64,000 nucleotides of DNA, taken from an uncultured Clostridia bacterium (GTDB taxonomy: Bacteria; Bacillota; Clostridia; Christensenellales; UBA1242). Below are positions 6,555-59,663 of the stretch, piece by piece; positions within the stretch are counted from its first letter, which is position 1, and each line of letters starts with the position of its first letter. A program made the translations under genes and the position numbers. The stretch spans positions 1,344 to 65,343 of the forward strand of contig CALWTE010000017.1 of NCBI GenBank assembly GCA_944384375.1, in the 5' to 3' direction. Below the pieces are notes generated by a model. It saw nothing but the letters and a program-made list of their open reading frames with translations. It was not told the origin of the DNA and did no database searches.

Positions 6555-6684
6555 AGAAATAATTATACCCAAAAACAGCCCATTTAACAAGCGAATAGGA
6601 CAACAATTTATTAAATATTTTAAACTTTATTTACACATTATGTGTAATAATTATTCCTTATTTCTATTTATAAAATTATATAAA

Positions 6685-11519: not shown

Positions 11520-12965
11520 TTATTTTTTAGATTTTTTGGTTGTATCGTCTGTCCAAATATCATACTCGGCTTCGTCTTGATTTTCTTTTTCCAACTCGTC
11601 CATAATTTCGTCTTTTTTCTCTTGCGAAATAGAGTCTATCGTCTCGTCTTGTATAAGTTGAGATGTTTCTTTTGTTACATAACTATCCAGAGGCTGTGGC
11701 CACCCTGAATTATCCCAAAAAGCGCTATTAGGTTGATATTCAAAGGCTTGCCCTAATGCTTTTACCTTTGACGGGTTTTCTTGTTCAATAGAAGAAGAAT
11801 TTTGCACATCTAATTTAGTTACAACACCATTATCTACTCGGTACAACGTATCTGGTGTTGGATTCTCATTTGTCCACTCTGTACACGTTACCATTGTATC
11901 AAAATTTTTGCAATAACTCATAAGTTTATGCCTGCGTACAAAATCTAATTCGGATAAAACATCATCTAAAAAGAGCATGGGTTTTTCTCCATAAAACTTA
12001 TGATACAGAAAGACTTCGGCAATTTTAAGTGCAAGAGTCGCCGTCCTTTGCTGGCCTAGACTTCCTTCATTTCGCAAGTTTATATACTCATAACTTTCTC
12101 CGCCCCTACCTTCATAAGGCTCAGCATTATTTATATAACAAAGTTTTATATCAAAATCATCTAAATGCGGGCCAATACTACTAGTATGTGTTAGACAATC
12201 ACGCACATAATTTTGGCGCACTTTCGCCTTATATACCTCTTCTAAATCGTTAATATGCACTTGTTCTAATCTATCACAAAAAGTACGATAAGTTAGGCGC
12301 AAAGTTTCTCTATTATCGGTTAGAATTCGCATAATTGTACCCACTAACTTTTGCAAACCCTTTAAAAAATTATATCTACGTAACATAATTTTTAACGAAT
12401 ACGACATAATCTGTTCGTCCCACGGTAGCAAATTTTTATCATAAACACCAGCCACTTTTATTGTTTTTAAAAGGGCATTACGCTGTTTAAGTGCGTGCTG
12501 AAAATTTTTCAAATTTATCATATAATTTGGGCTAATTTGGCAATTAATAATATCTAAAAAACGTCTGCGGTACTGAGGCCCGCCACGTACAATTTCAATC
12601 TCATCTGGGCTAAAATAAACGCAAGAAAAATTGCCCACAATATCACTAACTTTTACACTAGGTACACCATCTAAAACGATAGTTTTTCCCTTAGTGTTAC
12701 TTAAATTCACCCCTACACTGCGTTCCGTTTCCGCCCTAATAAAATCAAGTTCAATATTTGCTGTCGTTTTGCCTTTTTGAATTAGTAAATTGTCTTGTCT
12801 TGTCCTAGGACTGCGCCCGATACTGCACATATAGAGCGCCTCTAAAATGTTCGTCTTGCCCGAGCCGTTCATCCCCGTTATAACTGTTAAACCTGGATTA
12901 AAGTTTAACTCTAAATTATCAAAATTTCTAAAATTTTTTAATATTAACTTCTTCGCACGCATCAT
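11520..12965 (-). CDS. recF: DNA replication/repair protein RecF with a roughly 95-aa acidic C-terminal extension
   Basis: 'LKNFRNFDNLELNFNPGLTVITGMNGSGKTNILEALY' Walker A region, 'GSLGQQRTATLALK' signature and 'MLFLDDVLSELD' Walker B. The ORF is 481 aa, whereas typical RecF is about 370 aa. Confidence 0.9.
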   Translation of the reverse strand: MMRAKKLILKNFRNFDNLELNFNPGLTVITGMNGSGKTNILEALYMCSIGRSPRTRQDNLLIQKGKTTANIELDFIRAETERSVGVNLSNTKGKTIVLDGVPSVKVSDIVGNFSCVYFSPDEIEIVRGGPQYRRRFLDIINCQISPNYMINLKNFQHALKQRNALLKTIKVAGVYDKNLLPWDEQIMSYSLKIMLRRYNFLKGLQKLVGTIMRILTDNRETLRLTYRTFCDRLEQVHINDLEEVYKAKVRQNYVRDCLTHTSSIGPHLDDFDIKLCYINNAEPYEGRGGESYEYINLRNEGSLGQQRTATLALKIAEVFLYHKFYGEKPMLFLDDVLSELDFVRRHKLMSYCKNFDTMVTCTEWTNENPTPDTLYRVDNGVVTKLDVQNSSSIEQENPSKVKALGQAFEYQPNSAFWDNSGWPQPLDSYVTKETSQLIQDETIDSISQEKKDEIMDELEKENQDEAEYDIWTDDTTKKSKK

Positions 12966-13618
12966 ACACTCCTAAAAATCTGCCAACAAAGCAACTATAA
13001 AATGTCCCGCAAACAAAATAAAATACTTTTTAACTCAGTAAAAACATTTTTTGCAAATACAATAAGATACTTTTTACGTGGATAAAATACTTTCTTTCTT
13101 TGCAAATAAAAATTTTAAACTTTTATTACACGCAAATAAAATGATTTGATTCTTTTCTACGCAAAAAATTTTTTTTGATTCTTTTAATCATTCTATTATA
13201 GCAAAAAAGCGAAAAAAGAGCAAGGCATTTATATTTATTTGTGCTTTCGTTTTTGCTTTTGCTTTTTCTTTTGTTTGTTTCGTTTTTTGCTTTTAAAAAT
13301 TTGCATTTACACTATTTTTTACTATTTTTAATATTTTATTTTTCTTACGTTTTTTTATTTTCTTTTTTAACACTTTGTACTTTCGTTTTTTCCTTTATTT
13401 TTGGTGTTTCTCTTTATTGTTATTTGTTCTTTTGCTATTTTTTTAGTTGCTCTTTCAATGTTTTTTATAATTATTTTAAAATTTGCAAAACTGAATTTCC
13501 TGCCATAATAAATTAAATAAAAAATTATTAAAAGTTTTTTAGGAGAAGTTATAAAATTCAATACAAATTAGACACATCTATGATATAATTTCCTTATAAA
13601 AATTTTTAGGAGTAAATT

Positions 13619-14035
13619 ATGTCAAAAATTTACGAAGCCATATTAGAAGTTTTAGAAGAACAAAATTTGTCTATTAGAGATATAGAAAATTTAAAAGTTT
13701 TGGGAGATAAAACAATTTATAACTTTTCACAAGAAAACCCATCTTTGAAATCTTTAATGAAACTTGCAAATTTTTTAAAAGTGTCCTTAGATTATATGCT
13801 AGGCTATTCAGACAAAAATTTATTCACTGAATATGACATTGAAAATATCCATTTCAATAAAAACCTTAGAAAAATTATTCAAAATCAAAAAATTTCTATG
13901 AAGCATATGGCTCGAGATTTAAAGATGGGAGAAACCAATTTTGTAAGGTGGAATCGCGGAGTTTATCCTAGATTAGACAAACTCCTTGATATAGCAAACT
14001 ACCTAAAATGTACAATTGACGATTTGCTTTTGTAA
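13619..14035 (+). CDS. Tandem-HTH (XRE-like) transcriptional regulator
   Basis: 138 aa containing two HTH-like modules ('LMKLANFLKVSLDYMLG' and 'LLDIANYLKCTIDDLL'). Paralogous to 50034-50459. RBS taggagtaaattATG. Confidence 0.6.
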   Translation: MSKIYEAILEVLEEQNLSIRDIENLKVLGDKTIYNFSQENPSLKSLMKLANFLKVSLDYMLGYSDKNLFTEYDIENIHFNKNLRKIIQNQKISMKHMARDLKMGETNFVRWNRGVYPRLDKLLDIANYLKCTIDDLLL

Positions 14036-14068
14036 ATAAGTAACATTTAAAAACTTAATAAAGTTAAT

Positions 14069-14792
14069 ATTTTTCCTTTTATCACTTATTACAAAGTATG
14101 TAGGTTACAATTTGTAAATGAAGGGAGTGAACTGGTATCAAATTGTTACCAGTTAAAATTGGTTGCACAAGATGGGAAGCTAAGAGATACTGACGTTCTT
14201 AACACCAAAGGCATTTTAAGGCTTATTCAATCAATTCCTAGCAAAAAAGCAGAGCCTTTTAAGATGTGGCTTGCCCAAGTCGGTAGCGAAAGGATGGACG
14301 AAATTGCCGACCCACAAAAAGCAATAGATAGAGCCATTGCAACCTATCGCGAAAAAGGTTATCCTGAAGAATGGATTACACAAAGAATGCTCACTATTAA
14401 GACTCGCAAAGAGTTAACAGCTGAATGGCAAGACAGGGGGATTACTCAAGAAAAAGACTACGCCATTCTTACTAATGAAATGACAAAAGCATGGAGTGTA
14501 CACCGTGCAAGAATATAAAAAGTTTAAAGGACTTAAAAAAGAAAATTTACGCGACAATATGACAAATATTGAATTAGTCCTTAATATGCTTGCCGAAGTT
14601 ACGACTACCGCCCTTTCTAAACAAGAAAAACCACAAACTTTTAATGAAAGCAAAAATGTTGCTCACCGTGGCGGAAAAGTTGCCAACACAGCAAAACAAG
14701 CCTATGAAGAACAACTCGGGCAAAAAGTGGTTTCGTCCATTAATGTACAAAACAAACAAATGCTAGAAATCAAAAGCAAAGAAGATAAATAA
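14069..14792 (+). pseudogene. Bro-N/DinD-like (phage antirepressor / DNA-damage-inducible protein D family) remnant, 5'-truncated and frameshifted
   Basis: 'KLVAQDGKLRDTDVLNTKGILRLIQSIPSKKAEPFKMWLAQVG' continues in a second frame from about 14500 ('YKKFKGLKKENLRDNMTNIELVLNMLAE'). There is no N-terminal Bro-N part and no proper start codon. Confidence 0.6.
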
Positions 14793-15018
14793 TCTAAAAT
14801 TTTATATTAAGTAATAAGTATTTGTTTAAGCATTAAAAAATCAAAATGTGTTATGTTCTACTAAAATTTTATTTCTTGTTTGCTTTTTATAAAATAAAAG
14901 TACTTGTTTATAGTGAAAATAAAACTAAAACGACATTTTAAAACTATGCTTGAGTACGTATTTTAATATATTATGTTATAATGACTCTTAAATAAAATTA
15001 CAAAAGGGGATAATTATT

Positions 15019-15360
15019 ATGAATAAAGTTATTGCTGGTGATTATGCCGGTAAAAGTATAAGCCAAACTTTAGGCACCGCCTACTTATCTATAAGTATGT
15101 TAAAATCCATTCAATTAGATAAATCAACATTAGAATCTTATGAGATTGTAAATGAGGAAAAGAGAAAAAATGCAAGTTCTGTTGTTGGCAGAGGTCTTGT
15201 AGGTGGTTTTTTATTAGGTGGAGTTGGATTGTTGGCGGGTAGCCTTTCCGCAAAAAATAAAGGAACTTATCAAGTTATACTCCTATTTAAAGATGGGAAA
15301 AAATCATTAATTGAATGTGACGATAAAGTATATAAGGCTATTACAAAAAGTATGTTTTAA
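15019..15360 (+). CDS. Small hypothetical protein with a Gly-rich hydrophobic segment
   Basis: 113-aa ORF with RBS aaaggggataattattATG and a 'GRGLVGGFLLGGVGLLAGSL' segment. Confidence 0.5.
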   Translation: MNKVIAGDYAGKSISQTLGTAYLSISMLKSIQLDKSTLESYEIVNEEKRKNASSVVGRGLVGGFLLGGVGLLAGSLSAKNKGTYQVILLFKDGKKSLIECDDKVYKAITKSMF

Positions 15361-15508: not shown

Positions 15509-16054
15509 ATGGATTTATTTTCGGGATACTGTTACTCAGAGACGACAAAGAGCCGTTTAGCAAACTTTCTATATAATTATATAAACAAAAAGCCTGTTCT
15601 ATTATGTATCGGCTCAGATAAAATGCTCGCAGACTGCCTTGCACCCCTTACAGCCGAACTCCTTCGCAAAAAGGACTTTCCGTACTTTGTTTACGGTGGT
15701 CTTTCTGCGCCTATTACAACAAAAAACGCCGAATTTGCTTGCGACTTTATCCACACTATCCACAAAAACTCCCAAATTATAATAATTGATAGTATGGCGA
15801 CCACCAGACAATCTAGGCTCGGCACGATTATAATAAGCGATACTTACAAAGGTGCCATCAACAATTTAAATCTTGACGCTAATCTTTACATTTACGGCAT
15901 CACATCTTTACTTGATAGCACCAACAACCTTTTGACCAATGCTCGTCTTAATAATATTGAAAAAATTGCCACCACTATAACCAATGCCCTGTGCGATATC
16001 GCAAACTTCTACACCGAAATAAGCAAGTTAAAAGAAAAACAACTCCCTAATTAA
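15509..16054 (+). CDS. yyaC: YyaC-like putative sporulation protein (DUF1256)
   Basis: 'LLCIGSDKMLADCLAPL...VYGGLSAPI...IIIIDS' follows the YyaC pattern (CIGTD..GD.LGPL..VYGTL..P). B. subtilis yyaC is also origin-proximal. Confidence 0.55.
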   Translation: MDLFSGYCYSETTKSRLANFLYNYINKKPVLLCIGSDKMLADCLAPLTAELLRKKDFPYFVYGGLSAPITTKNAEFACDFIHTIHKNSQIIIIDSMATTRQSRLGTIIISDTYKGAINNLNLDANLYIYGITSLLDSTNNLLTNARLNNIEKIATTITNALCDIANFYTEISKLKEKQLPN

Positions 16055-17979
16055 AAAGTCGTTTTTAAACTCTCTTAACATAAAAATAAAACAAAGTATT
16101 TTTTTATTTAACAAATAAATAAAGTTAATAAAACGTTTTACTTATTATAGTTTATAAAAAGCTAACTAATACACTATATTTTATAAATGATTAAGCAATT
16201 TTAATAATAAACATTATTTATTAAATACGCAAAGCAACCAAAAACTGCTGATATCCCACAAAATTAAACAATAAAAATTTTTTAAATCTAAAAAAACTGT
16301 GGATAACTTTCTATTTTTTACAAAGTATTATAAAGGTAAAATATAAAAATAATATAAAACCAAATAAAAACAAACTAAATCAAACCAAACCGAGCAAAAC
16401 AAGACGAGACAAGATAAAACTGAATATTAATATTAAATCATAATTACAAAATAACTAACTATTTTTACACAGACCAAAGCAATAAAAACACTAGAAACTG
16501 TAACTGATTCTAAAAAATAACAAACAACATAAACTAACCGCTTTGCAAAGCAAATAATAAAGCAATTTGCGTTTTTTAATAAAAACTTGATATATGCTTG
16601 TTAAGCAGTATTCTAAATATTTACCATACAAACAACTATTTACTTACATTATCTGTTTCACAATAATAACTTTTTTACACGTTTATTATTTTACATCTTT
16701 AACACTTTTAATATAACCAAAAAACAAACAAGAATTTAAAAAGAAAAAAGTTATCCACGTGCATAACTTTTTTTGTCCAAAAAATCTTGTATAAAACTAA
16801 TAGCGTTTTATAAAACAATAAATAGATAATTTAAAATTCCATAAATTTTAATTATAAATTAAATTATAAATAATTACTAAAAATTATTCCTAAAACACTA
16901 TTTAAAGTATCAATTATAAATTTATAATAAAAATTTTTATACGCAAAAAACGCAATAAAGTAGCAAAATTTTGCAGGAATATTGCAAAAAAACAACAACT
17001 TACCTACAAAGAAACAACTATTGCCAAATCAAACTTAAATATCTAGCACAATAACTAAGTGCAAAAAATATATAGAAAAAAATAAGTTAAAAACACTAAA
17101 AACTAGAAATTATATTCACACCTAAAATCAAGTTCTATTTCACATTAAGCATCTACTACGTTAAAAAATTTTTTACTAAAATACAGTAAAAAACTAACAA
17201 AAATTATTAAATTTTTTATAAAACTTTTCCACGTATTTTTAAATTATCAACAACTAAAAAATTACGTAAGCAAAAAAACTTTTTACTTAAAAACAAATCA
17301 AAAAATTATTAAACTTTTTTAGTTTAAAACTAAAACATAATCAAAACAAAACTTTAGTCTTTTTTAACTAGGCAAGTTTATCTTTTTAATATCTGGAATA
17401 ATCTCCACAAACACTAAAAAAATACAAAACATACATTTTGCTACTTTGGATTCAGTTAAAACACTTTAGATAAAGCCTTTTAAAACAATTTTTACCTTAT
17501 CCAAATTACTCAAACTAACCTAAAAACTAAAGTAATAAATGCATTTTACAATTTTTTAAAACAGAAAAACTCCTCGTTCTCCCTTTCTCTAAATTTTTCC
17601 GCTACCAAACATACCAGCTAGATTTCTTACCTTAAAAACCATTGCTATTGTCACGTAAAAACTACTCAAAAACATAACAACAGTTATAACATAAATCTAG
17701 AACGGAAAAACTTTTTACAAAACAAACTTTTTTCTAAACAACCTCCGTTTTTCTTAGACACCTTAGCCTAAAACTTAAAGCAAATTATGGCTATTTAATA
17801 CGGTGGATAACTCTACACTTCCCAGCGAGAAAAACTTATCCACAGGTTTTGTTCACTCAAAACAAAAATTTTTTGAGTACACACATTATCACATAGAGCC
17901 AAGTTAATTGTCAATACTTTGAGACACCTTTTTTTAATTTTAGTTATTTTGCACAAAATCAACTTTTTTAATTTCCCTC

Positions 17980-18588
17980 AAAAAGCCTTTTGTTAAGCCA
18001 AAAACTCGTCGTAAGTAACACGATAAAATTTTTTAATTCCTTTCATCCAATCTATTAACTTATTATTTTTTACCCTGCTAATCATTTCCTTTGCTTTGCT
18101 AATGTGGCTTTCCTTTTTTTATTCGCATCACTTTTCTTTCCTTAAAATTTTCTGCTTCCAGATTCTTTTCTTTTTCTGCTGCTTTCCTGTAACCTACACT
18201 TTTCCTATTCCTTCCTTCTCCTTTTTCCCTTCTCGTACGTTTCTTGCTCCTTAACCTAACCATACTTAACCAGCCATCCATTTGAAATCAAATTTTAGAG
18301 AAAGAATATAAAATATATTTTTTTAATTTTATTTTTAAATAATAGATAAATAGTTATTGTTGTGGAAAAGTGGATATCTTGATAATCTTAGCATAAATAA
18401 TCCCTATTTAAAAAGCTTTATACATAAAAACAGAAAATTTTTTCGTGTGGATTTTTCGTGAATTTCGTATTATTTTTGTGTGTATATTTTGTGAAATTTA
18501 TCAAAATTCACGGGGATAACTAGATTATTTCAGCAATACTTGTAATTTTTTGTATAAGTCAATTTTTTGGCTTAACAAAAGGCTTTTT
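17980..18588. repeat. Perfect 25-bp inverted repeat pair (AAAAAGCCTTTTGTTAAGCCAAAAA) bracketing 559 bp
   Basis: 17980-18004 is the exact reverse complement of 18564-18588. Confidence 0.85.
18060..18290 (+). repeat. Polypyrimidine (T/C) tract of about 230 bp on the + strand
   Basis: Long runs such as cttttctttcc, ttcttttctttttctgctgctttcctg and ttcctattccttccttctcctttttcccttctcg, with very few purines. Confidence 0.8.
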
Positions 18589-19559
18589 TTAAAATTTTAT
18601 TTTTTAGCATCTCCTTTTAAACTTTTTAATTTCACTAAGTAAAGGTGGATTCTTTGAAATTTTACTTAGTTTATATTTTTATTATAAACTAAGTAAAAAA
18701 TTTTTTTAAGCAAATTTTGACATATTTTTTTTTTTAGACTATTAACCAAAATTGTTTAAATTAATCCACATTAAAAAACTTTATCTACAAGGGGTTTTGG
18801 ACACTTATCCACATTTTGCACATTGCGTGGAAAACTAACATTTTGTTGAAAACTACTCATTCCGTACTATTCCCCCAAAAAACCATATTAAAAATTTGCT
18901 TTCTAATAAGCATAACCTACCTCTTATAATAAATTATACAATCTTCTGTATCATAATAAAAACCCGTTATCTAAAGCAAAATATTCTTCAATATTAAATA
19001 TAATATCTAAAAACAGAACACTCAATAAGACTGCTTAATAGTAGTTATAAAAAGGCCATTTATTATCTTCCTATTCTGGCACCACTATAATATGCAATTA
19101 TCCTTCTTTGCCTTCTGAGATTTTTTAATAATTTTAAATGTTTATTAATAGAAATTTGCTTAGGATTTAAGAAAAAAATTTTGTATTTATAATAAAATTA
19201 CATAGAACTTTTATGTGACTTTAATTACTAATAAAAAATGAAATTATATAATTTACTTATAAATAATTAATTTAGATAGAAATTTTACAAAACCAGCATA
19301 TTACTAAATTAAAGTTAGCATGCTAGAAAAATAATCTTGCTCAAATAAACAACAAACTCTCACCCATAGAGCAAGTATGGTAAGTTATAAAAACAAAGTA
19401 GGTTAAACAAGTGAATAAAACAATTAAACCTAAAACATTCAATAAATATATAAGCAATAAAAACTAATATAGAAAAATTAAACCATCTATATTTTTATCA
19501 CTTTTTATATTAAAGAAACTATTGTTAAACAATCGCAAAAGCAAAATATTTATCAACTC

Positions 19560-19588
19560 TTGACAGAATAGGCAAAATTTGATATACT
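19560..19588 (+). promoter_or_regulatory. rpmH promoter TTGACA-N17-TATACT
   Basis: -35 at 19560-19565 and -10 at 19583-19588, 34 nt upstream of the rpmH ATG. Confidence 0.7.
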
Positions 19589-19621
19589 AATATACAATGT
19601 TATTTATACTAGGAGGAGAAA

Positions 19622-19759
19622 ATGAAAAGAACGTTTCAACCCAAAAAGCGTCAACGTAGTAAAGTACACGGTTTCCGTGAACGTATGAAGACAACCAGCG
19701 GACGTAAAGTATTAAAACGTCGTCGTAATCGTGGCCGCAAAGAATTAGTGCGTGCATAA
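19622..19759 (+). CDS. rpmH: 50S ribosomal protein L34
   Basis: Below the ORF-track length cut-off. Hand translation gives [45 protein letters not shown] (45 aa). RBS aggaggag. Confidence 0.95.
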
Positions 19760-19827
19760 ATTTAGGTACTATGCAAGACATAATACCTTATTTTTTTATA
19801 AAAAAACGTTAATTTTAGGTGATTTTT

Positions 19828-20166
19828 ATGTTAAAAAAAGAAAACCGACTAAAAAAAAGAAAAGAGTTTAAGTATATTTACAAAAAAGGTTCCAAAGTTT
19901 ATAGTAAAAATATAACATTAATTAAGATTGACAGTAAGTTTGCACAACCTAAAATTGGATTTTCAGTTAGCAACAAAATCGGTAAAGCGGTTGTTAGAAA
20001 TAAAATAAAGAGACAACTTAGAAATATTGTGTCAGAAGTGGTAAAAAATATAAAGTTTGTAAACTTAATTTTTGTAGCGCTTCCTGGTATTGTAGATTTA
20101 GATTTTAAAACATTAAAGAAAGAAGTCTACTCTTTGTTAATTAAAGGAAAAATAATTAATGAATAA
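19828..20166 (+). CDS. rnpA: Ribonuclease P protein component
   Basis: 'LKKENRLKKRKEFKYIYKKG' and 'KAVVRNKIKRQLR' motifs, and the position directly after rpmH. ATG 19828 behind aggtg is preferred over GTG 19819. Confidence 0.9.
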   Translation: MLKKENRLKKRKEFKYIYKKGSKVYSKNITLIKIDSKFAQPKIGFSVSNKIGKAVVRNKIKRQLRNIVSEVVKNIKFVNLIFVALPGIVDLDFKTLKKEVYSLLIKGKIINE

Positions 20167-20434
20167 ATTTTTTAAGATATTAACTGCTCCTTTAAAATAT
20201 TTTGCCCTTTTTTTTATATACTTATACAAGTATACTATTAGTGTTATTACTCCGTCTTGTTGTATTTATTACCCTAGTTGTTCAACATATATGGTGACAG
20301 CAATACGGCGTTTTGGTATTTTCAAAGGTTTTTATCTGGGTGCAAAACGAATTTGGAGATGTAGACCTAGTTTTTGCGGGGGATTTGACCCTGTACCTGA
20401 TTCTTTAACTGAAAATTTAAGATTTATAGTATAA
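20159..20434 (+). CDS. yidD: Membrane protein insertion efficiency factor YidD
   Basis: 'CCIYYPSCSTYMVTAIRRFGIFKGFYLGAKRIWRCRP..GGFDPVP'. Overlaps the rnpA stop by 8 nt. Confidence 0.9.
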   Translation: MNKFFKILTAPLKYFALFFIYLYKYTISVITPSCCIYYPSCSTYMVTAIRRFGIFKGFYLGAKRIWRCRPSFCGGFDPVPDSLTENLRFIV

Positions 20435-20783: not shown

Positions 20784-20818
20784 GTAAAAAGAAAACGGCT
20801 TTTGACCGTTTTCTTTTT
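20784..20818. terminator. Bidirectional rho-independent terminator at the yidC 3' end
   Basis: Stem gaaaacgg/ccgttttc (20791-20798 / 20806-20813) flanked by A5 and T5. Confidence 0.7.
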
Positions 20819-22025
20819 ATCTACTATAAGAAACTTTTTTAGTTTCCTTTTCTTTTTCATCTTTCCTTTTATCCAATTTATCAAATACTTTCATACATGT
20901 AAAGTTTATAATTACACCCATTAATGAGTTCGTAACAATGTATAGAGCAAATGCTGCAGAATAATAGAATGTAAAGATAATCATAATAACAGGCATTACA
21001 AATTTCATAATCTTCATTGCTGTGTTTGTATTTGCTTCTGGTTGTTGATTGTTTTGTTTTACACTATTATTTACAGGTTTAACTACAATTTGATTGTTTT
21101 TTGCTGTTGTGGATTTTTGATTCAACCATAATGAAAAAAATGTAATAGCACCCGATAGAACCACTAAAATAAAGTAACCATTCCAACTTGAATAAGTTTT
21201 TTGTATATCAGCCGTGATTGTATTATATTCCATAGCTATTTGATTTAGTCTTGCTTCATTTTGACCTACAGCATCATTTAAATTTGCAATATTATAAAAA
21301 TCATTATAATTTGGAACTCCCGAAACATATGTATCAGGGCGCCATACACTATCTATCCAAAGCCAATTATCTTTAATTTCTTCATATTTTTCAGCAACGT
21401 TTGCTTGCGCTATATCAATTTCTGTGGCTAAATCATTTTGCGCTACTAATTCAAAAGCTTTTTGACGAATTTGCGTTTCGCTTGGTTCTTGCACCCCTTC
21501 AGTTACTAGCGCCTCCTCAGCCTCGGTTAACCTATTATCTATTAGTCCTTGTATATATTGAGTAACTTCATCATAATTAGTCATTTGTAATTCTGTAATC
21601 AAAGTTTGTTGATATACTGTTTCTAATTGTGTATACTGATTATAAATTTTTTCTTGCGAAATCCCTACGAGTCCAGTAAACAATGTAATAAAGATAAAAG
21701 CAGTTAAGATTAAATTTATTAACATACTCAAACAAGACCCAACAACATTATATCCTTCTTTTTTATAAAGCTGCATTGTTTTTTGATTTAAAGCTTGCGG
21801 GTTGTTTTGATATTGTTTTTTTAGTTTTTGCAACTCTGGTTGCATTTTTTGTTGTTTTCGCATGCTGTCACGACTGACTTTTCTTTGCCAAATATCTAAA
21901 GGACTTAAAATTAATTTAAGCACGATAGTGAATACGATAATCATAAAACCGTAGTTTGGGATAAAGTCAAACAAGTTGATTATCGGTGACCACATGTCCA
22001 TAGTCCAGTTAGCTAAAAATGACAT
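20817..22025 (-). CDS. yidC: Membrane protein insertase YidC (long variant with an inserted loop)
   Basis: 'LKLILSPLDIWQRKVSRDSMRKQQKMQPELQKLKKQY', 'LYKKEGYN' and C-terminal TM segments with a basic tail. RBS aaaggagtttttATG. Confidence 0.85.
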   Translation of the reverse strand: MSFLANWTMDMWSPIINLFDFIPNYGFMIIVFTIVLKLILSPLDIWQRKVSRDSMRKQQKMQPELQKLKKQYQNNPQALNQKTMQLYKKEGYNVVGSCLSMLINLILTAFIFITLFTGLVGISQEKIYNQYTQLETVYQQTLITELQMTNYDEVTQYIQGLIDNRLTEAEEALVTEGVQEPSETQIRQKAFELVAQNDLATEIDIAQANVAEKYEEIKDNWLWIDSVWRPDTYVSGVPNYNDFYNIANLNDAVGQNEARLNQIAMEYNTITADIQKTYSSWNGYFILVVLSGAITFFSLWLNQKSTTAKNNQIVVKPVNNSVKQNNQQPEANTNTAMKIMKFVMPVIMIIFTFYYSAAFALYIVTNSLMGVIINFTCMKVFDKLDKRKDEKEKETKKVSYSR

Positions 22026-22368: not shown

Positions 22369-23454
22369 TTATTTTAATTTGGAAACTAAATTATAAATTC
22401 TGTCTAAATCATCAGTATTGTAGTAATCAAAATAAATTCTACCTTTTTTATCGTTACCTAAAATTGTAATCTTTGTTCCAAAAACTTGTTGCATATCATC
22501 TCGCAATGATATTAATTCCATACTAAGTGGATTTGATTTTTTTGCTTGAGCAATTTCTGGTCTGATTAATTCTTGAACAGTTTTTTCTACTTCACGAGCG
22601 GTCATTTTACCATCACTTGCTTTTTTTGCAATTAAAATCTGTTGTTCTCGCGGCAATGTAATAATTGCTCTTGCTATACCAGGTTGCAACTTTCCTTTTT
22701 CTACTAAAGTAAGTACTTCTGGTTCTAGTGATAATAATCTCAAACTATTAGCAACAACAGGTCTACTTTTCCCTATTTTTTGTGCAACTTCGTCTTGAGT
22801 GAAGCCATAATTATCAATTAATTGTTTAATGGCTACAGCAGTTTCTATTGGGTTCAAGTCCTCGCGCTGCAGGTTTTCTATTAGCGCTATTTCTCTGCGT
22901 TGTTGTTCATTATAATCTCTAATTATAACAGGCACTGTCTTTAATCCTGCAAGTCTAGCGGCTCTATAGCGCCGTTCACCTGCAATAATAATATAAATAT
23001 CATCTTTAGGTACTGCAATAATTGGTTGAATAATGCCATGTTCTTTTATAGATTGCGCTAATTCTTTTAACGACTCTTGATTGAAATTCTTACGAGGTTG
23101 GTCAGGGTTTGGCTGCAATCTTGTAATAGATATCTGTCTTGCCGTTGCTCCTTGATACATTTCCTCGCCTGCTGTTTTTAATTTTTCTTCAAGTTTTGTT
23201 TTTTCTTTCACAAACTCTATATTTTCTGTAGGCTCTTTTGGTTGTACTTTCTTTTGATATTTTTCCAAAAGATTATCAGCATTATTTAAAATTTCTAAAT
23301 TTGTAGTATTTTTTGCTGTTTTTTCAGTGTTTTGTTTTGTTTTTTCTATTTTTACGATATCATCAGCTTCTTTTTTATTTTCTAGAATATCCTTGTTGTC
23401 GTCTTCATATAAAGCAAACAAAGAACTTAGACCACGCCCTAAACCTTTACTCAT
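22369..23454 (-). CDS. parB: Chromosome partitioning protein ParB/Spo0J
   Basis: 'QPRKNF', 'GIIQPIIAV', 'IIAGERRYRAARLAGL' and an HTH 'FTQDEVAQKIGKSRPVVANSLRLL'. Overlaps the parA stop. Confidence 0.95.
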   Translation of the reverse strand: MSKGLGRGLSSLFALYEDDNKDILENKKEADDIVKIEKTKQNTEKTAKNTTNLEILNNADNLLEKYQKKVQPKEPTENIEFVKEKTKLEEKLKTAGEEMYQGATARQISITRLQPNPDQPRKNFNQESLKELAQSIKEHGIIQPIIAVPKDDIYIIIAGERRYRAARLAGLKTVPVIIRDYNEQQRREIALIENLQREDLNPIETAVAIKQLIDNYGFTQDEVAQKIGKSRPVVANSLRLLSLEPEVLTLVEKGKLQPGIARAIITLPREQQILIAKKASDGKMTAREVEKTVQELIRPEIAQAKKSNPLSMELISLRDDMQQVFGTKITILGNDKKGRIYFDYYNTDDLDRIYNLVSKLK

Positions 23455-24268
23455 TATTCAAATCCCCCTTAAATAACATTCTTTTTTCCATAAGCACCCC
23501 ACTATCTTTGTTGCGTCGTAAAAACTCACGCGCTAACTCATGATACGCAATTCCACCCGTACTTCTATTATCATACAAATAAATAGGCAGTCCGTGGCTT
23601 GGGGCTTCAGCTAGCCTAATATTTCTAGGAATAACTGTTTGATATACTTTTTTCCCAAAACCCTCTTTAATCTCATCTATTACTTGATTTGATAAATTAC
23701 TTCTACTATCCTTCATTGTTAAAATTATGCCTTCAATCTCTATTTTAGGATTATAATACTGTTTTACAAGTCTTACTGTATTAAGTAGTTGCATTAACCC
23801 CTCTAAAGCATAAAATTCACATTGAATCGGTATAATTACACTATCAGAAGCTGTTAAGGCATTTACTGTAATCAAACCTAAAGAAGGCGGACAATCTATA
23901 AATATGTAATCGTACTTATTTTTTACTTGTCCTAATTGTTCTAGTAATACTTTTTCTCTGCCTTCTTTTTGAACCAGACTTACCTCTGCTCCTGCCAAAT
24001 CAACATTACTAGGTACTAAATCTAGGTTTTTTATATTTGTTTCTTTTATTAGGTCAGTAAGCTTATATTCGCCTGTTATAACATCATAAAAAGTCAACAT
24101 ATCCTTTGTTTTTTCAAAGCCTATACCAGTTGTAGCATTTCCTTGAGGGTCCATATCAATCAGCAAAACTTTTTTCCCGTAAGCTGCTAAATAAGTAGAC
24201 AAATTGACACAAGTAGTAGTTTTACCAACTCCCCCCTTTTGATTTGTAAAAGCAATAATTTTGGTCAT
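23447..24268 (-). CDS. parA: Chromosome partitioning ATPase ParA/Soj
   Basis: 'IIAFTNQKGGVGKTTT' deviant Walker A and 'IIDCPPSLG'. Start placed at ATG 24268 behind gaggtggg. Confidence 0.95.
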   Translation of the reverse strand: MTKIIAFTNQKGGVGKTTTCVNLSTYLAAYGKKVLLIDMDPQGNATTGIGFEKTKDMLTFYDVITGEYKLTDLIKETNIKNLDLVPSNVDLAGAEVSLVQKEGREKVLLEQLGQVKNKYDYIFIDCPPSLGLITVNALTASDSVIIPIQCEFYALEGLMQLLNTVRLVKQYYNPKIEIEGIILTMKDSRSNLSNQVIDEIKEGFGKKVYQTVIPRNIRLAEAPSHGLPIYLYDNRSTGGIAYHELAREFLRRNKDSGVLMEKRMLFKGDLNNE

Positions 24269-24341
24269 ATTTCCCACCTCTAATCTTGATATTAAAATTA
24301 TATCACAACTCGTATTTTAATGCAACAAAATAAAAGTAAAA

Positions 24342-24357
24342 AGTTTCACGTGAAACG
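24342..24357. promoter_or_regulatory. parS-like site (14/16 match; the inner 14 bp are palindromic)
   Basis: aGTTTCACGTGAAACg compared with consensus TGTTNCACGTGAAACA. Confidence 0.6.
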
Positions 24358-24520
24358 TTTATTTTATTAGATTTTGTATAAAGTAATCAAAAAAAATCAA
24401 AAACTTTCTAATATATTGCAAAATTGATAATTTTTCACACAAAAAAATTAATTTTTATAGTATTATGCATTGTTTTTTAGTGAAATTAGTTTTCTGTCGT
24501 CTTAATAATTGAAAATTTAT

Positions 24521-24536
24521 TGTTTCACGTGAAACA
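24521..24536. promoter_or_regulatory. parS site, perfect palindrome
   Basis: TGTTTCACGTGAAACA; the palindrome extends to 20 bp (24519-24538). Confidence 0.85.
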
Positions 24537-25028
24537 ATGTTTTCTGTATAACCACCAAATACTCTTAATTACTGTTTTTATTAAAAAATGTTAATATTGA
24601 ATGGTTGATAATTTTGTATTAAAATTTGCTATCACAAAATCGTATTGCTTTTTAAATTTTTATTTATTTATATCACAACTATTATTTTATAAAAAAAATA
24701 AAATCATTATATATATATTACTCTTTGTTTCTATGTGGTTTTAACTTTTATGAAATTTGCATGGTAATGTGTTTTGTAAATAAATTAAATTTTTCCAATA
24801 CTATCTAATTAAAAATATACAAATCAATTTATAATATTTATATTTATATTTAATATTATTTAGTGTTTAGTATGATTAAATGGTATTTGATAACTCTTAC
24901 AGCTTTATTTGTTTTTTAATGTCCAATGTTTACATACTTTTTATTATAATGTAGTAAAAATGCTAAATATTGATGCTTTTTTAATTATTTCTATTAAAAA
25001 ATTATAAAATAATGCCAGATATTTCAAA

Positions 25029-25044
25029 TGTTTCACGTGGAACA
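25029..25044. promoter_or_regulatory. parS site
   Basis: TGTTTCACGTGGAACA is the reverse complement of the B. subtilis-type TGTTCCACGTGAAACA. Confidence 0.85.
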
Positions 25045-25334
25045 CTTAAAAAGGTTTGGTTTTATTTGTTTAATAATAATACAGAGTGTTATATATTAAT
25101 AATAAAATAAATTAATAAATTAAGTTTTTTATGGAAATTGTTACAATAATGCAATCATTAACAAATCAATGTCTTTTTGTGCTTTGTGGTTTACTTGTAA
25201 AATGTAAATTGTTTTAAAGATATAAAAATCTAAACATTAAACACACACTTAACAAAGCAGTTGTTTGTATTCTAATATACTTATTATAGCAAATGTGGTT
25301 TAAAAATTAAAAATTTAAATATAATTAAAAGTAT

Positions 25335-25350
25335 TGTTTCACGTGAAACA
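25335..25350. promoter_or_regulatory. parS site, perfect palindrome
   Basis: TGTTTCACGTGAAACA. Confidence 0.85.
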
Positions 25351-25436
25351 AAAAATATTGTATTATTATTTGTTTTTTATTATTGATGCTTTTTAAATAT
25401 ATAAACAAATATAAATATAATTATCTACGAATATAA

Positions 25437-25452
25437 TGTTTCACGTGAAACA
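25437..25452. promoter_or_regulatory. parS site, perfect palindrome
   Basis: TGTTTCACGTGAAACA. Confidence 0.85.
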
Positions 25453-25837
25453 ATATTAATTTGCTTTTTAAGTGTTTGTTGGGTTTTTGTTATAAGTGTG
25501 AAGTCTATTTTTTAACAAAATACGTTTTATTAATAGAAAATTGATATTTACATTAATGCTTTTCTGTTTATGCGATATAAGATAGATAAAAAATATTATA
25601 AATGTTTGTTGGCAATAATTTTAAAATATAAATGTGTATTACATTAGCGTTTTATTAATATCTGCTATACTGTTACAATACCAGTTTGGTTTGCTTGTTT
25701 TTTGTTTGTTCGTATTTATGTTTATGATTTAGAGTGTTATTTTAATGCATAGTACCAGTTTTTTTAAAAATAATCATTTTTTCTTTAGTTTTTCATATAA
25801 AATTAAAGTTTTACATTAAAACCATTTTTATAAGAAT

Positions 25838-25870
25838 AAAAAAAGAACGCGTTTTGTACGTTCTTTTAGT
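25838..25870 (-). terminator. Rho-independent terminator of rsmG
   Basis: Stem aagaacg/cgttctt with an A7 run on the + strand, which is a T-run on the transcribed minus strand. Confidence 0.65.
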
Positions 25871-25880
25871 AAAAATAAGT

Positions 25881-26603
25881 TTATAATGGTGATGTTAAGA
25901 TTTTGTTTTTTAATCTAGGGTAATTTGTGGGTGTTTCCTTTGTTTTGCCTATGATTATAATTTTTCGTTCTAATAATTCATTGTTTTGTGTGTTTTTTAG
26001 TGAAAAAGTTTGGATTTCTTTGAATTTTCCACCTAGTTTACTAATTGCCTGGTTTGCTGCTAATATTTCTTCTTCTGGGCTTATGGCCTTAAATGCAATC
26101 ATTTCACCTTTTAGTTTTACAAAAGGTAAACAATATTCTGTTAGAATATTTAGTTTTGCGACAGCTCTTGCGATAACATAATCAAAAGTTTCTCTACTTA
26201 TTCCGTTTTGTGGTAGTTCTTGGGCTCGTGTATGTATTGTCTTTGTATTGTTTAATTCTAGTTCTTTAATGACTATATTTAAAAAATTTATTCGTTTTAA
26301 TAAGCTATCAACTAAGATTATTTGCAAATCAGGTCTAAATATTGCAATTGGGATACCAGGAAAACCTGCTCCTGTACCGATATCACATAAGGTGGAGTTT
26401 TCTTTGTAGTAACTAATGTTAACTAAAGAATCGGCAAAATGTTTTAGAGAAACATCATAAGGGTCTGTGATTGCTGTTAGGTTTATGTTTTTATTAAATT
26501 CTATCAATAAATTATAATATTTTAGTAATTGATCTATTTGACTTTCTGTGGCTGATATGTTGTTTGTTTGTAGTGTGTTTTTAATTATAGATTTAACATC
26601 CAT
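25881..26603 (-). CDS. rsmG: 16S rRNA (guanine527-N7)-methyltransferase RsmG/GidB
   Basis: 'LCDIGTGAGFPGIPIAI' SAM-binding motif, and the position immediately downstream of mnmG. Confidence 0.9.
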   Translation of the reverse strand: MDVKSIIKNTLQTNNISATESQIDQLLKYYNLLIEFNKNINLTAITDPYDVSLKHFADSLVNISYYKENSTLCDIGTGAGFPGIPIAIFRPDLQIILVDSLLKRINFLNIVIKELELNNTKTIHTRAQELPQNGISRETFDYVIARAVAKLNILTEYCLPFVKLKGEMIAFKAISPEEEILAANQAISKLGGKFKEIQTFSLKNTQNNELLERKIIIIGKTKETPTNYPRLKNKILTSPL

Positions 26604-26608
26604 TTATT

Positions 26609-28477
26609 CTATTGCTCCTTGTTTTTCTTTAAATAAATAGTCAAAATATTAATATCTGCTGGTGACACGCCGCTTATTCTACTTGCTTGGGCTATTGTTA
26701 AAGGTTTGGTGCTAGATAGTTTTTGACGTGCTTCTATTCTTAAACCTTTTAAAGCGCTGTAATCAAAGTCTTGCGGTATGGTTAAGTTTTCGTTCTTTTG
26801 AAATTCGGCTATTTGCTCTTTTTGTATATTTATATATCCCTCATATTTTGCAATAATATTTAATTGTTCCAGAACTTCTGTGGAAAAGTCGTCAAAGTGA
26901 TGAAATTCTTTATTAAACTTATAGATGTCAATATTATTGCGTTTGAGTAGTGATTTTATGGAAATTCCGCTTTTCACTTCATTTTCGTTATTTTCTTTTA
27001 AAAATTCTTGTAATTTATTGTTTGGAGATAAAAATTTGTTTAAAATTTCGTTTCCACGTGCAATTTCTTTTTCTTTTTTCAAAACTTTTAGATAATTACT
27101 CTTGCTAACTAGTCCTACCTTATATCCTATTTTTGTGAGTCTTAAATCGGCATTGTCTTGCCTAAGAAGAAGCCTATACTCTGCTCGTGATGTCATCATT
27201 CTATATGGCTCGTTAGTTCCTTTTGTAACTAAGTCGTCTACTAGCACGCCGATATAAGCCTCGTTTCGCTTTAAAACGATTTGTTCTTTATTTTGCACAA
27301 ACAATCCAGCGTTTATTCCTGCGAGTATCCCCTGTCCTGCTGCTTCTTCATATCCGCTGGTGCCATTAACTTGCCCTGCAAAGAATAATCCTTTGATTTT
27401 TTTATATTCCAAAGTTGGTAATAAATCACGCGAATCTATACAATCATATTCTATTGCGTAAGCATAGCGCATTAAATGTGCTTGTTCTAACCCTACAATG
27501 CTGTGGATAAAATCAATTTGTGCGTGATATGGCAAGCTACTTGAAAGCCCTTGAACGTAAATTTCGTTAGTGCTAAGCGCTTCAGGTTCTAGGAAAAATT
27601 GATGTCTAGATTTATCTGCAAAACGGACAATTTTATCTTCAATAGATGGACAGTATCGTGGCCCTATACCCTTTATGACTCCCTGATAAAGTGGGCTGAA
27701 TTTTAGGTTATCACGTATAATTTGATGTGTTCGTTCATTTGTATAACCTATATAGCAATTCACTTTATTTTGTGGGGCGCTACGTGTGTTTTTGCTAAAA
27801 GGTGGTAAATTCTCTTGACCTATTTGAGGCTCTAGCGCATCAAAATTTACTGTGCGCCTATCAATTCTCATAGGTGTACCCGTTTTAAATCTTAAAATTT
27901 TCAATCCTAACCCTGCTAAACTGCGTGTCAATTTTGTCGCATTGGTAAAGCCGTTTGGCCCGCTATTTCTTATGTAATTGCCAGTCAAAGTCCTACTATT
28001 GAGATATACACCCGTACAAATTACTACTGCTTTTGCGGAGAATTTTTCCCCCATTGCTGTTTTGATACCGAGGAGTTTTCCCTTGCGAGTCAATATTTGA
28101 GCAACTTCTGCTTGCAATATGGTTAAATTCTCTTGATTTTCCAAAGTTGATTTCATAACTTCGTGATAACGAACTTTATCAACTTGCACACGTAAGGAGT
28201 GAACGGCTGGGCCTTTTGCTTCGTTAAGCATATGGCGATGAAGGGTCGTCTTATCTGCAACTTCCCCCATAACCCCGCCCAAAGCGTCAATCTCAAATAC
28301 CAAATGCCCTTTTGCCGTTCCCCCGATACTAGGATTACAAGGTAAAAAGCCGATACTATCTAAATTTAATGTCGTAATGAGTGTTTTTAATCCCATTTTC
28401 GCACAAGCCATTGCCGCTTCGCATCCTGCATGGCCTGCTCCTACGACGATTACGTCAAAATTATTTTCGTTGTTCAT
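26609..28477 (-). CDS. mnmG: tRNA uridine 5-carboxymethylaminomethyl modification enzyme MnmG/GidA
   Basis: 'FDVIVVGAGHAGCEAA', 'GPRYCPSIEDK' and 'GQVNGTSGYEEAAGQG'. Start moved to ATG 28477 (MNNENNFDV) behind aagggga. Confidence 0.95.
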   Translation of the reverse strand: MNNENNFDVIVVGAGHAGCEAAMACAKMGLKTLITTLNLDSIGFLPCNPSIGGTAKGHLVFEIDALGGVMGEVADKTTLHRHMLNEAKGPAVHSLRVQVDKVRYHEVMKSTLENQENLTILQAEVAQILTRKGKLLGIKTAMGEKFSAKAVVICTGVYLNSRTLTGNYIRNSGPNGFTNATKLTRSLAGLGLKILRFKTGTPMRIDRRTVNFDALEPQIGQENLPPFSKNTRSAPQNKVNCYIGYTNERTHQIIRDNLKFSPLYQGVIKGIGPRYCPSIEDKIVRFADKSRHQFFLEPEALSTNEIYVQGLSSSLPYHAQIDFIHSIVGLEQAHLMRYAYAIEYDCIDSRDLLPTLEYKKIKGLFFAGQVNGTSGYEEAAGQGILAGINAGLFVQNKEQIVLKRNEAYIGVLVDDLVTKGTNEPYRMMTSRAEYRLLLRQDNADLRLTKIGYKVGLVSKSNYLKVLKKEKEIARGNEILNKFLSPNNKLQEFLKENNENEVKSGISIKSLLKRNNIDIYKFNKEFHHFDDFSTEVLEQLNIIAKYEGYINIQKEQIAEFQKNENLTIPQDFDYSALKGLRIEARQKLSSTKPLTIAQASRISGVSPADINILTIYLKKNKEQ

Positions 28478-28924
28478 TTGTGTTCCCCTTATGTAAATAC
28501 TTATTATTATATCAAAAAATTTATCTTTTGTATAGATGTAATAAGTAAAATTTGGAATTTTTAAACAAAACTGATGTTTTGTGATTTTTATTTTTATAAA
28601 AAATTTCAATTTCTGTAATCAATGATAATTTTCATAAGATATTTATAGAAAAACTAATGTTTTAAATTAACTATATAAAAAAGATAAAAACTGTTAGTTT
28701 TGCCATTTTGTTTTACAATAAAAATAAATGCTTTTTAAAAAGTAATTCTTTCTTCTGCTAATTTTAAGTATCTTAAAAATACAACGGTAATATTGAAAAA
28801 GTTTTAACATATTATTATAGATTTGTTAAATATGAATTAATATCAAAATTTCACAAACAAAAATATTGTTCTAAACAAATGTACGATAAAAAAATTTTTA
28901 CTTTAACAAAAGGACTTTTATAAG

Positions 28925-29040
28925 TTATCCACATTTTTAGAACATATATTTTGCACTATTTTTTGTACTTTTTAAGATTTCTGTGGATAAAATGTGTACA
29001 AAAAGGTAAGTTATCCACATTAGTTTTCCACTTATCCACA
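28925..29040. promoter_or_regulatory. Dense DnaA-box cluster: four perfect TTATCCACA boxes in 116 bp
   Basis: Perfect boxes at 28925-28933(+), 28982-28990(-), 29011-29019(+) and 29032-29040(+), plus TTTTCCACT at 29024. Lies between divergent mnmG and the surface-protein gene. Confidence 0.75.
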
Positions 29041-29185
29041 TTCAAGAGATGCAAAATCTTTTAGAAAATTTATAAAATAATAGTCGTTTTTATTTGTTTT
29101 TATAGGGGGAAATATGCTAAAATTATTTTATATAAAATAAAATATTTTTCTTCATTTGTTACATAATAAAAATAGGAGTTAAAAA

Positions 29186-47514: not shown

Positions 47515-47872
47515 ACTCATATCTCCTTTGTCCACTAAAAATTAATGTGGCGAGTGCAAAAACTTCTGCCACAATCAAACGTAAATTAATGTTATCACAA
47601 GAATTTTAAAAAGTAAAGTTTTAAGGACAGGTTTTTTTGAAGTTTTTGAATATGACAATCTGTAATTTATTTATAATAAATTAAATTTGCCAAATTTTTT
47701 AAAATTTTTGTTAAAATCTAGTTGAGTTTTATTTAGGTTGATAAGATTTAAGGATAAAAATATATTTATCAAATTTTTATTTTACTTCTTTAAAATAGAA
47801 GCGTTAGTATTATTTGCTTTACTATTAACTTAAAAAATATTATAATTTTTTTATAAAATTTAAAAAAGAGTA

Positions 47873-57698: not shown

Positions 57699-59663
<1,965 letters not shown>

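Follow-up and report, generated by a model that had tools for sequence, protein, structure and literature searches.

A candidate DnaA-dependent replication origin upstream of rpmH, apart from dnaA, in an uncultured Clostridia bacterium

We analysed a 64-kb stretch of DNA (hereafter the window, whose positions serve as coordinates throughout) on an 85.7-kb metagenome scaffold (ENA ERZ28614114) from a Christensenellales-like Clostridia bacterium. Between a DUF1256/YyaC-like gene (yyaC-like) and the rpmH-rnpA-yidD operon, the window contains a gene-free interval of 3.5 kb, termed the desert here, which an initial annotation had put forward as a replication origin (oriC) uncoupled from dnaA. This proposal was supported by an enrichment of DnaA boxes, by a module conserved among relatives, by the homology of this module to spacers in outgroups and by a compositional switch inside the window. 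Judging from the sequence, we consider it probable, at roughly 0.74, that 18.30-18.84 kb is the core of a functional DnaA-dependent origin.

A gene-free interval rich in DnaA boxes

No credible open reading frame (ORF) lies between yyaC-like and rpmH, as the initial annotation had stated. The longest ORF encodes 60 aa (18099-18281, minus strand), and each of the six frames carries 80-107 stop codons per ~1188 codons, with no frame spared. The 60-aa product had no Pfam match and no homologue in the corresponding stretches of the relatives' DNA; searches of the six-frame translations of the desert against Pfam returned nothing at E<=0.1, and Rfam returned nothing over the desert at E<=1. Hidden genes and stop-codon recoding were ruled out, as all six frames are closed and the Pfam searches were empty, both for the desert and for the filler DNA of one relative (L004). 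Mobile DNA was rejected, as the desert showed no similarity to phage and plasmid collections. A search for repeats and iterons in the desert returned only a 34-nt inverted pair and short box-containing repeats.

The desert holds 10 DnaA boxes, three perfect and seven with one mismatch; the initial annotation had the perfect boxes right but counted only five with one mismatch. When the tract was simulated 500 times with a first-order Markov model, 0.89 boxes were expected, and no simulation reached 10. Divided by tract, 16055-18290 holds 6 boxes (0.59 expected), 18291-18850 holds 4 (0.14 expected) and 18851-19559 holds none. For the 560-bp tract 18291-18850, no simulation reached 4 boxes with at most one mismatch. 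Two further abutting boxes (TTATCCACA and CTATCCACA) lie at 15747-15764, inside the yyaC-like coding sequence, and in L004 an eight-box cluster (5506-6165) starts inside the yyaC-like gene and continues for ~300 bp past it; the zone rich in boxes is therefore wider than the non-coding interval.

An almost pure A+T stretch abutting the box at 18361-18369 had been described, and it was recovered: 18291-18360 is 91% A+T, with a 40-nt run of pure A/T that is the second longest in the window. This run ends 16 nt from the outermost box (18361), so that the boxes are flanked by an AT-rich tract, as looked for in an oriC. The boxes and the features of the core are as follows.

16298 (-), 17836 (+), 18805 (+): perfect DnaA boxes (TTATCCACA)
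16751, 17244, 17497, 17802, 18361, 18762, 18781: DnaA boxes with one mismatch
18297-18360, plus strand: predicted DNA unwinding element (purine run, A/T run, trio-like triplets and 7-nt spacer)
18297-18306, plus strand: purine run AGAGAAAGAA
18305-18344, plus strand: pure A/T run, 40 nt
18345-18353, plus strand: trio-like triplets GAT AAA TAG, then a 7-nt spacer
18361-18377, plus strand: tandem DnaA boxes TGTGGAAAA and AGTGGATAT (1 and 2 mismatches) with a one-base overlap, beside the trio-like triplets
18378-18835, no strand: DnaA-box array of the candidate origin core, in two opposite orientations
18446, 18511: boxes in the TGTGGATAA orientation, 2 mismatches each
18762, 18781, 18805: boxes in the TTATCCACA orientation, of which 18805 is perfect
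18660-18698: 16-bp perfect palindrome inside the core box array

The tandem boxes read together as TGTGGAAAAGTGGATAT. A basal unwinding system (BUS) has been defined by a box with at most 2 mismatches located 0-16 bp from at least 3 NAN triplets, with an optional second box of at most 4 mismatches (PMC8287927). The core shows this minimal pattern, i.e., GAT AAA TAG, the 7-nt spacer, TGTGGAAAA (1 mismatch) and AGTGGATAT (2 mismatches).

As the initial annotation had noted, neither dnaA nor dnaN adjoins the desert. It had overlooked a complete dnaA gene inside the window, 26.6 kb from rpmH; the gap upstream of this gene has no DnaA-box cluster, and dnaN was not found anywhere in the 64-kb window. 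The bipartite arrangement of Bacillota origins, with dnaA beside or between box clusters and dnaN downstream, is absent. The genes in the layout below were identified by Pfam scans, except where another basis is given.

4032-6590, minus strand: polA
11520-12965, minus strand: recF-like SMC_N ATPase gene
13.6-14.8 kb, plus strand: small helix-turn-helix (HTH) and Bro-N genes
15509-16054, plus strand: DUF1256/YyaC-like gene
16055-19621, no strand: desert, gene-free from yyaC-like to rpmH (ORF and six-frame scans)
19622-20434, plus strand: rpmH, rnpA, yidD (RnpA and YidD by Pfam)
20817-22025, minus strand: yidC
22369-23454, minus strand: parB
23447-24277, minus strand: parA
24278-25880, no strand: parA-gidB gap, 1.6 kb
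24342, 24521, 25029, 25335, 25437: five parS-like sites (three perfect, TGTTTCACGTGAAACA), clustered at 24342-25452 in the parA-gidB gap
25881-26603, minus strand: gidB
26609-28609, minus strand: gidA
28610-29185, no strand: gidA-Glug gap, 576 bp
29186-33706, plus strand: Glug-motif surface protein gene, 1506 aa (Glug)
34590-35909, plus strand: mnmE
46141-47535, minus strand: dnaA, complete, with DnaA_N, AAA+ and HTH domains
53820-56711, minus strand: gyrA
57699-59663, minus strand: gyrB

The desert is thus surrounded by origin-proximal markers, namely, the rpmH-rnpA-yidD operon, yidC, parB, parA, the five parS sites, gidB and gidA, and the parS cluster marks an origin-proximal domain. No tRNA gene and no Rfam match at the gathering threshold were found in the whole window. 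In E. coli, 42 kb separate dnaA from oriC, which is found between gidA and mioC, and an origin unlinked from dnaA is not unusual for bacteria in general. According to reviews, oriC is usually flanked by dnaA (PMC4285127); the context of the desert is therefore unusual for the phylum.

A module shared with relatives and with dnaA-dnaN spacers

We collected relatives through RnpA homologues and their contigs and by searching species genomes with an RnpA alignment, and numbered the loci (L002, L003 and so on); when the species genomes were searched with the YyaC-like protein, no relative was recovered. The loci form a graded series of metagenome-assembled genomes (MAGs) of uncultured Clostridia, mostly from ruminant or human gut, several of which are labelled Christensenella or Christensenellales. 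One of them (L008; CAVEBU010000020.1) carries a Clostridia-type origin locus but was deposited as Alistipes finegoldii, which looks like a binning or labelling error.

The window belongs to a sub-clade with L087, L002, L003, L004, L007, L008, L009, L017, L022 and L024. Where the contig reaches far enough, these loci show recF-like (minus), yyaC (plus), sometimes a NUDIX gene (minus) and then box-rich gene-free DNA on the left, and rpmH, rnpA and yidD (plus) followed by yidC, parB, parA, gidB and gidA (minus) on the right. The gene-free box-rich stretch upstream of rpmH measures 1.2-3.3 kb in the sub-clade relatives and holds 5-18 boxes in each of the nine loci counted (all but L087). None of the sub-clade loci has dnaA within ~9 kb of rpmH. 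Deserts that lacked boxes or contained intact genes in relatives had been named as an outcome that would speak against an origin; we looked for this and found box-rich, gene-free deserts with a shared module instead.

In Bacillus, the origin separates rpmH from dnaA, and transcription of rpmH leads away from the origin. The outgroups L013, L020 and L026 differ from this arrangement, as rpmH-rnpA-yidD-yidC lies directly downstream of dnaA-dnaN on the same strand, with a box cluster in the dnaA-dnaN spacer. Intermediate gene orders were found in L005, L010 and L011, the latter two of which have divergent dnaA and dnaN. Taken together, these groups of gene orders suggest that the origin-bearing spacer stayed beside rpmH and that dnaA and dnaN moved away.

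The shared module was found upstream of rpmH in 10 distinct lineages (L002, L003, L004, L005, L007, L008, L009, L017, L022 and L024), that is, in 12 loci when the window and the duplicate L005/L006 are included. Read on the rpmH strand, it consists of a GAGAGA-type purine run, ~40 nt of pure A/T, TAG/TAT/TAA triplets, a spacer and TGTGGAAATGTGGATAA boxes. Alignments and a pattern search showed this one module in every sub-clade locus, with a spacer of 0-7 nt, often G+C-rich, and flanks that cannot be aligned. The box farther from the trios is usually nearer the consensus in the relatives (TGTGGAAATGTGGATAA), as in basal unwinding systems (PMC8287927), and clearer trio arrays occur in L020 (7 triplets) and L030 (TAGTAGTAATAGTAGTAGGGGC).

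The module is also present in five outgroup dnaA-dnaN spacers (L010, L011, L013, L020 and L026), where it has the opposite orientation and its AT tract abuts the Shine-Dalgarno sequence and ATG of dnaN. A profile built from these five spacers alone found its best match in the 64 kb at 18317-18407 (E = 4.4e-7), spanning the AT run, the trios and the boxes. In C. difficile, DnaA melts the DNA of the dnaA-dnaN spacer, and this architecture is conserved in clostridia (PMC7561715); through the outgroup profile, the core shows homology to a module whose position is supported by experiment as a site of unwinding. The closest relative, L087 (RnpA 73% identical), has an equivalent gap of 1.65 kb, and the blocks 17852-18000, 18299-18822 and 19494 onward are colinear with the window. 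The block 18299-18822 aligns with L087 7000-7507 at 66% identity, and conserved origin sequence makes up only ~0.7 kb of the desert.

From this arrangement, we propose that DnaA, encoded 26.6 kb away, would bind the tandem boxes at 18361-18377 and the opposed arrays to ~18835. A DnaA filament would then extend over the trio-like triplets at 18345-18353, and the 40-nt A/T run at 18305-18344 would melt, with the helicase loaded there. The core is probably a basal unwinding system of the kind known from the Bacillus and Clostridioides dnaA-dnaN spacer, which stayed upstream of rpmH when rearrangements took dnaA and dnaN away. The remaining ~2.8 kb would comprise dispersed accessory boxes, an outward promoter, two copies of a motif and ~2.4 kb of filler.

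With B. subtilis incC and C. difficile oriC2, the module shares the AT tract, TAG-type triplets, a short spacer, two abutting boxes with the distal one nearer the consensus and, through the outgroups, a homologous module in the dnaA-dnaN spacer (PMC8287927; PMC7561715). Unlike incC and oriC2, the core is flanked by neither dnaA nor dnaN, lies upstream of and co-oriented with rpmH in 1.2-3.6 kb of non-coding DNA and has a degenerate trio array in the window; unlike the bipartite incAB-dnaA-incC, it has no second box cluster across a dnaA gene. E. coli oriC is similar in being unlinked from dnaA, with an unwinding element at one end, box arrays of opposite orientation next to it and, as with the gidA promoter, a predicted promoter on the unwinding side that reads away from the origin. 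However, E. coli is another lineage, no GATC, IHF or Fis logic was seen in the desert, and the predicted outward promoter drives no recognisable gene.

Strand composition and the second box cluster

A local flip in strand composition had also been described at the desert. On the plus strand, 16.16-17.96 kb has A>T and a GC skew of -0.24 to -0.60, 17.96-18.36 kb is T- and C-rich, 18361-18560 has T>A and a GC skew of +0.22, and the skew is negative again (-0.41 to -0.09) at 18761-19560. The pattern was therefore real, but it is a bump of only 200-400 bp and not a lasting switch. The G>C bump at 18361-18560 arises because boxes in the TGTGGATAA orientation supply G; it is not a replichore boundary.

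Skews at four-fold degenerate sites were pooled over 11 loci and are given for the plus strand.

polA, recF-like: GC skew -0.33 and -0.21; TA skew ~-0.18; left-like
yyaC through parA: mean GC skew ~-0.09; TA skew ~0; near zero
gidB, gidA: GC skew +0.29 +/- 0.09 and +0.06 +/- 0.04; TA skew +0.16 and +0.10; right-like
Glug (sense strand): GC skew +0.21; TA skew +0.13; right-like

These values place the switch within ~16-26 kb, without singling out 18.3 kb. In these data, a skew minimum far from the window, which would have spoken against an origin here, was not found. In this interval, the desert core is the sole DnaA-box cluster with an AT-rich tract. A regression separating the effects of gene strand and side placed the switch at 18.5-25.5 kb, with the best changepoint at 24-25.5 kb; the fit was slightly worse at 18.5 kb, worse at 29 kb and very poor at the dnaA gene. 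Across 15.5-24.3 kb and the orthologues in 10 loci, the four-fold TA skew is ~0, i.e., a ~9-kb zone shows no replication-type skew. It is a possibility that this near-zero zone of synonymous skew, from yyaC to parA, reflects alternating or dispersed initiation.

Several observations weigh against an origin core at 18.30-18.84 kb. Composition does not switch at 18.3 kb, as the fillers on both sides are left-replichore-type (C>G and A>T on the plus strand), and the four-fold GC skew of rnpA is -0.36 +/- 0.10 in the sub-clade. The genes yidC, parB and parA are near zero and not right-replichore-like, and the clearest sign change is at parA-gidB; this skew pattern to the right of the core is our main reservation. 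In addition, the trio array of the window is degenerate, its NAN triplets forming two sets of three that are out of phase with each other, and as many as 131 window sites conform to the trio criterion. The published pattern is non-specific in AT-rich DNA and carries no weight alone, and it was rejected as a discriminator; the argument is carried by the comparative evidence. Finally, four perfect boxes (0.004 expected) form another conserved cluster 10 kb away, at 28925-29040.

The skew raises the alternative that fork divergence takes place at ~20.5-25.9 kb, right of the rpmH operon (e.g., in the parA-gidB gap), and that the module is an inactive relic or a DnaA-titrating or regulatory site. 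The best changepoint falls there, both fillers and rnpA are left-replichore-type, and skew at third codon positions (GC3) gave an apparently sharp parA/gidB switch in nine sub-clade loci, the sharpest synonymous-site sign change. However, this switch largely dissolved at four-fold sites and was not relied on; the yidC-parA signal is ~0 at these sites, and the GC3 pattern is largely due to amino-acid composition and transcription. No DnaA box with at most one mismatch was found in the intergenic gaps of 19.6-28.6 kb. The parA-gidB gap, the second-largest gene-free gap in the window, contains none and measures 0.5-1.7 kb in most relatives but only ~150 bp in L003. Moreover, purifying selection has clearly acted on the rpmH-side module over deep divergence, unlike what would hold for a relic. 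We regard this alternative as quite improbable.

The second cluster, between gidA (minus) and Glug (plus), comprises four perfect DnaA boxes in 116 bp (28925-29040), three of which, in tandem, are conserved base for base in L002, L003, L004, L008 and L024. It could be the true or a second origin, with the rpmH side a relic or regulatory site or with two origins as in Pseudomonas. The genes flanking the gap are divergent, and from 29 kb onward the raw GC skew is positive. P. aeruginosa has oriC1 on the rpmH/dnaA side and oriC2/oriCII upstream of gidA (PMC13438810; 10.1101/2025.08.05.668638); similarly, two conserved box clusters bracket the rpmH...parAB-gidAB block here, and the cluster upstream of gidA recurs in five relatives. 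Unlike that of P. aeruginosa, the gidA-side cluster of this Clostridia lineage has no unwinding module: the outgroup profile matched the box part only (E = 0.007), and no conserved AT tract, trio array or spacer was found beside the boxes. A minimal trio within 16 bp occurs only at the inner box 29019, as a bare three-triplet run (GAA AAC TAA) inside the adjacent box sequence, and the outermost box, which faces an AT-rich tract, has no trio. From an origin at this position, gidB and gidA would replicate leftward, yet their four-fold skews are right-replichore-type. In L017, the cluster (4258-4372) lies beside Glug, not gidA, 4.3 kb from the rpmH module and on its other flank, with the orientation of the cluster relative to Glug kept. 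This position fits better with a DnaA-controlled promoter, comparable to the P. aeruginosa gidA-side cluster, through which DnaA regulates gidAB-parAB (PMC13438810). It suggests that DnaA may control the Glug cell-surface protein gene through the 28.9-kb boxes, and we consider an origin there unlikely. In B. subtilis, the box clusters outside oriC are origin-proximal DnaA-binding regions. By analogy, such clusters, which are present in B. subtilis (PMC2533591), may be a model for the 28.9-kb cluster, the boxes of the left filler and the boxes inside yyaC (15747-15764).

Origins of Bacillota and Clostridia are normally sought beside dnaA/dnaN. If 18.30-18.84 kb is the origin core, this rule would miss the origin or choose the wrong cluster here, with consequences for origin prediction, for growth rates estimated from metagenomic coverage and for analyses of these MAGs that rely on replichores. 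The relatives also provide a natural series that could show what an origin needs beyond DnaA boxes, as one unwinding module lies in 1.2-3.6 kb of gene-free DNA together with the outward promoter, the origin-specific motif and filler of strongly polar composition.

Filler, outward promoter and origin-specific motif

The long polar filler, a conserved outward promoter and an origin-specific motif are new here. Their positions, together with the rpmH promoter, are as follows.

16390-17851, no strand: left filler, with boxes 16751, 17244, 17497, 17802 and 17836 (308 bp in L087)
18002-18296, no strand: pyrimidine-rich lineage-specific insert, holding the spurious 60-aa ORF (18099-18281, minus strand)
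18836-19493, no strand: right filler, no DnaA boxes, C>G on the plus strand, GC skew -0.41 to -0.09
17821-17931, minus strand: conserved promoter region, reading leftward, away from the unwinding element
17914-17909, minus strand: -35 TTGACA, followed by an 18-nt spacer
17890-17885, minus strand: TG-extended -10 GATAAT (TGnGATAAT)
17918-17931: conserved upstream element, TTTGAGACACCTTT on the plus strand (the GTGTCTCAAA element)
17821-17829: conserved early-transcribed element, CCCAGCGAG on the plus strand (the CTCGCTGGG element)
17981-18001, minus strand: motif copy 1
18567-18587, plus strand: motif copy 2
19560-19588, plus strand: rpmH promoter TTGACA, 17-nt spacer and TG-extended TATACT, then a Shine-Dalgarno sequence
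19622-19759, plus strand: rpmH, which with its promoter bounds the region on the right

Some 2.4 kb of the desert consists of filler specific to the lineage, which turns over rapidly and is conserved in neither length nor sequence; 18001-18298 corresponds to ~41 bp in L087 and 18823-19493 to 178 bp. One box (16298) lies just left of the left filler. Pooled over the three segments, the plus strand has ~7% G and ~17% C, and in eight lineages the rpmH-sense strand of the filler has 6-13% G versus 14-34% C, usually with A>T. No sequence conservation was found in the filler, where shared k-mers are only A- and T-tracts. The polarity is identical on both sides of the core. The GC skew of the desert is -0.31, and all of the 10 other co-directional (plus) spacers in the window are positive. 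In magnitude, the filler skew resembles the four-fold skew of left-replichore genes (polA -0.33, plus strand). This composition may result from mutational bias (leftward transcription or fork passage), selection on Rho polarity or something else.

The filler could also be read as the remains of decayed genes, e.g., former dnaA/dnaN or NUDIX genes, the desert being their graveyard. A NUDIX gene lies inside the equivalent interval in L002, L004 and L008, and dnaA and dnaN lie there in the outgroups; the window has a coding density of only ~73%, with many AT-rich spacers of 300-800 bp (11-30% G+C), and the L004 filler has a gene-like look at 40-56% G+C. However, tblastn searches with DnaA, DnaN, NUDIX, the neighbouring protein of L005 and Glug recovered no relic in eight deserts, six-frame Pfam searches were empty for the window and L004 fillers, and tblastx between deserts recovered only blocks conserved at the DNA level, in all frames. 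With no residual protein similarity in any frame by these searches, a pseudogene tract was rejected. The G-poor, C-rich filler of the eight lineages also has a non-coding composition, and the graveyard is very unlikely.

The predicted leftward promoter matches 11 of 12 consensus positions, the same as the rpmH promoter, and is kept together with both elements, in position and sequence, in seven loci (window, L087, L002, L004, L007, L008 and L009). It lies 210-830 bp from the unwinding side across these loci and reads across boxes 17836 and 17802. The predicted transcript showed no conservation past ~+50, and only a weak 4-bp hairpin was predicted; with no Rfam match either, a structured RNA gene was rejected. 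The rpmH promoter is invariant in 11 loci, and a search for a conserved divergent promoter upstream of it found none.

The conserved outward promoter on the unwinding side and the strand composition on both sides led us to a tentative and rather doubtful reading, in which the filler would form gene-free, leftward-transcribed 'runways' flanking the origin, with the geometry of gidA/mioC at E. coli oriC. Leftward RNA would be C-poor, hence Rho-resistant and prone to form R-loops, whereas rightward RNA would be C-rich and G-poor, hence Rho-terminated. On this reading, it would be understandable that eight lineages preserve the composition despite the turnover of sequence and length. If true, transcription itself, not its product, would tune origin firing and shield the origin from yyaC read-through.

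The motif has the core GGCTTA-N3-AARGGC, i.e., two GGCTT half-sites 11 bp apart, and takes the form TTGGCTTA-N3-AAAGGCTTTT in the window. Its two copies are the only ones in the 64 kb and form the arms of the 34-nt inverted repeat, which are 88% complementary. Among 89 loci, the core was confined to origin regions of the sub-clade, once or twice where present (L002 8980, L003 9319, L004 8339 and 9038, L009 8081, L017 8487 and L087 6943), with varying position and orientation. Based on this distribution, GGCTTA-N3-AARGGC is a candidate binding site for an origin-associated protein.

Beside the desert, small plus-strand genes (HTH/Cro-like, a Bro-N fragment and unknowns) occupy 13241-15360, between recF-like and yyaC. 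This block is missing in L002 and L004, and L087 has a HAD hydrolase gene in its place; the block looks like a phage-like insertion specific to the lineage, beside the predicted origin.

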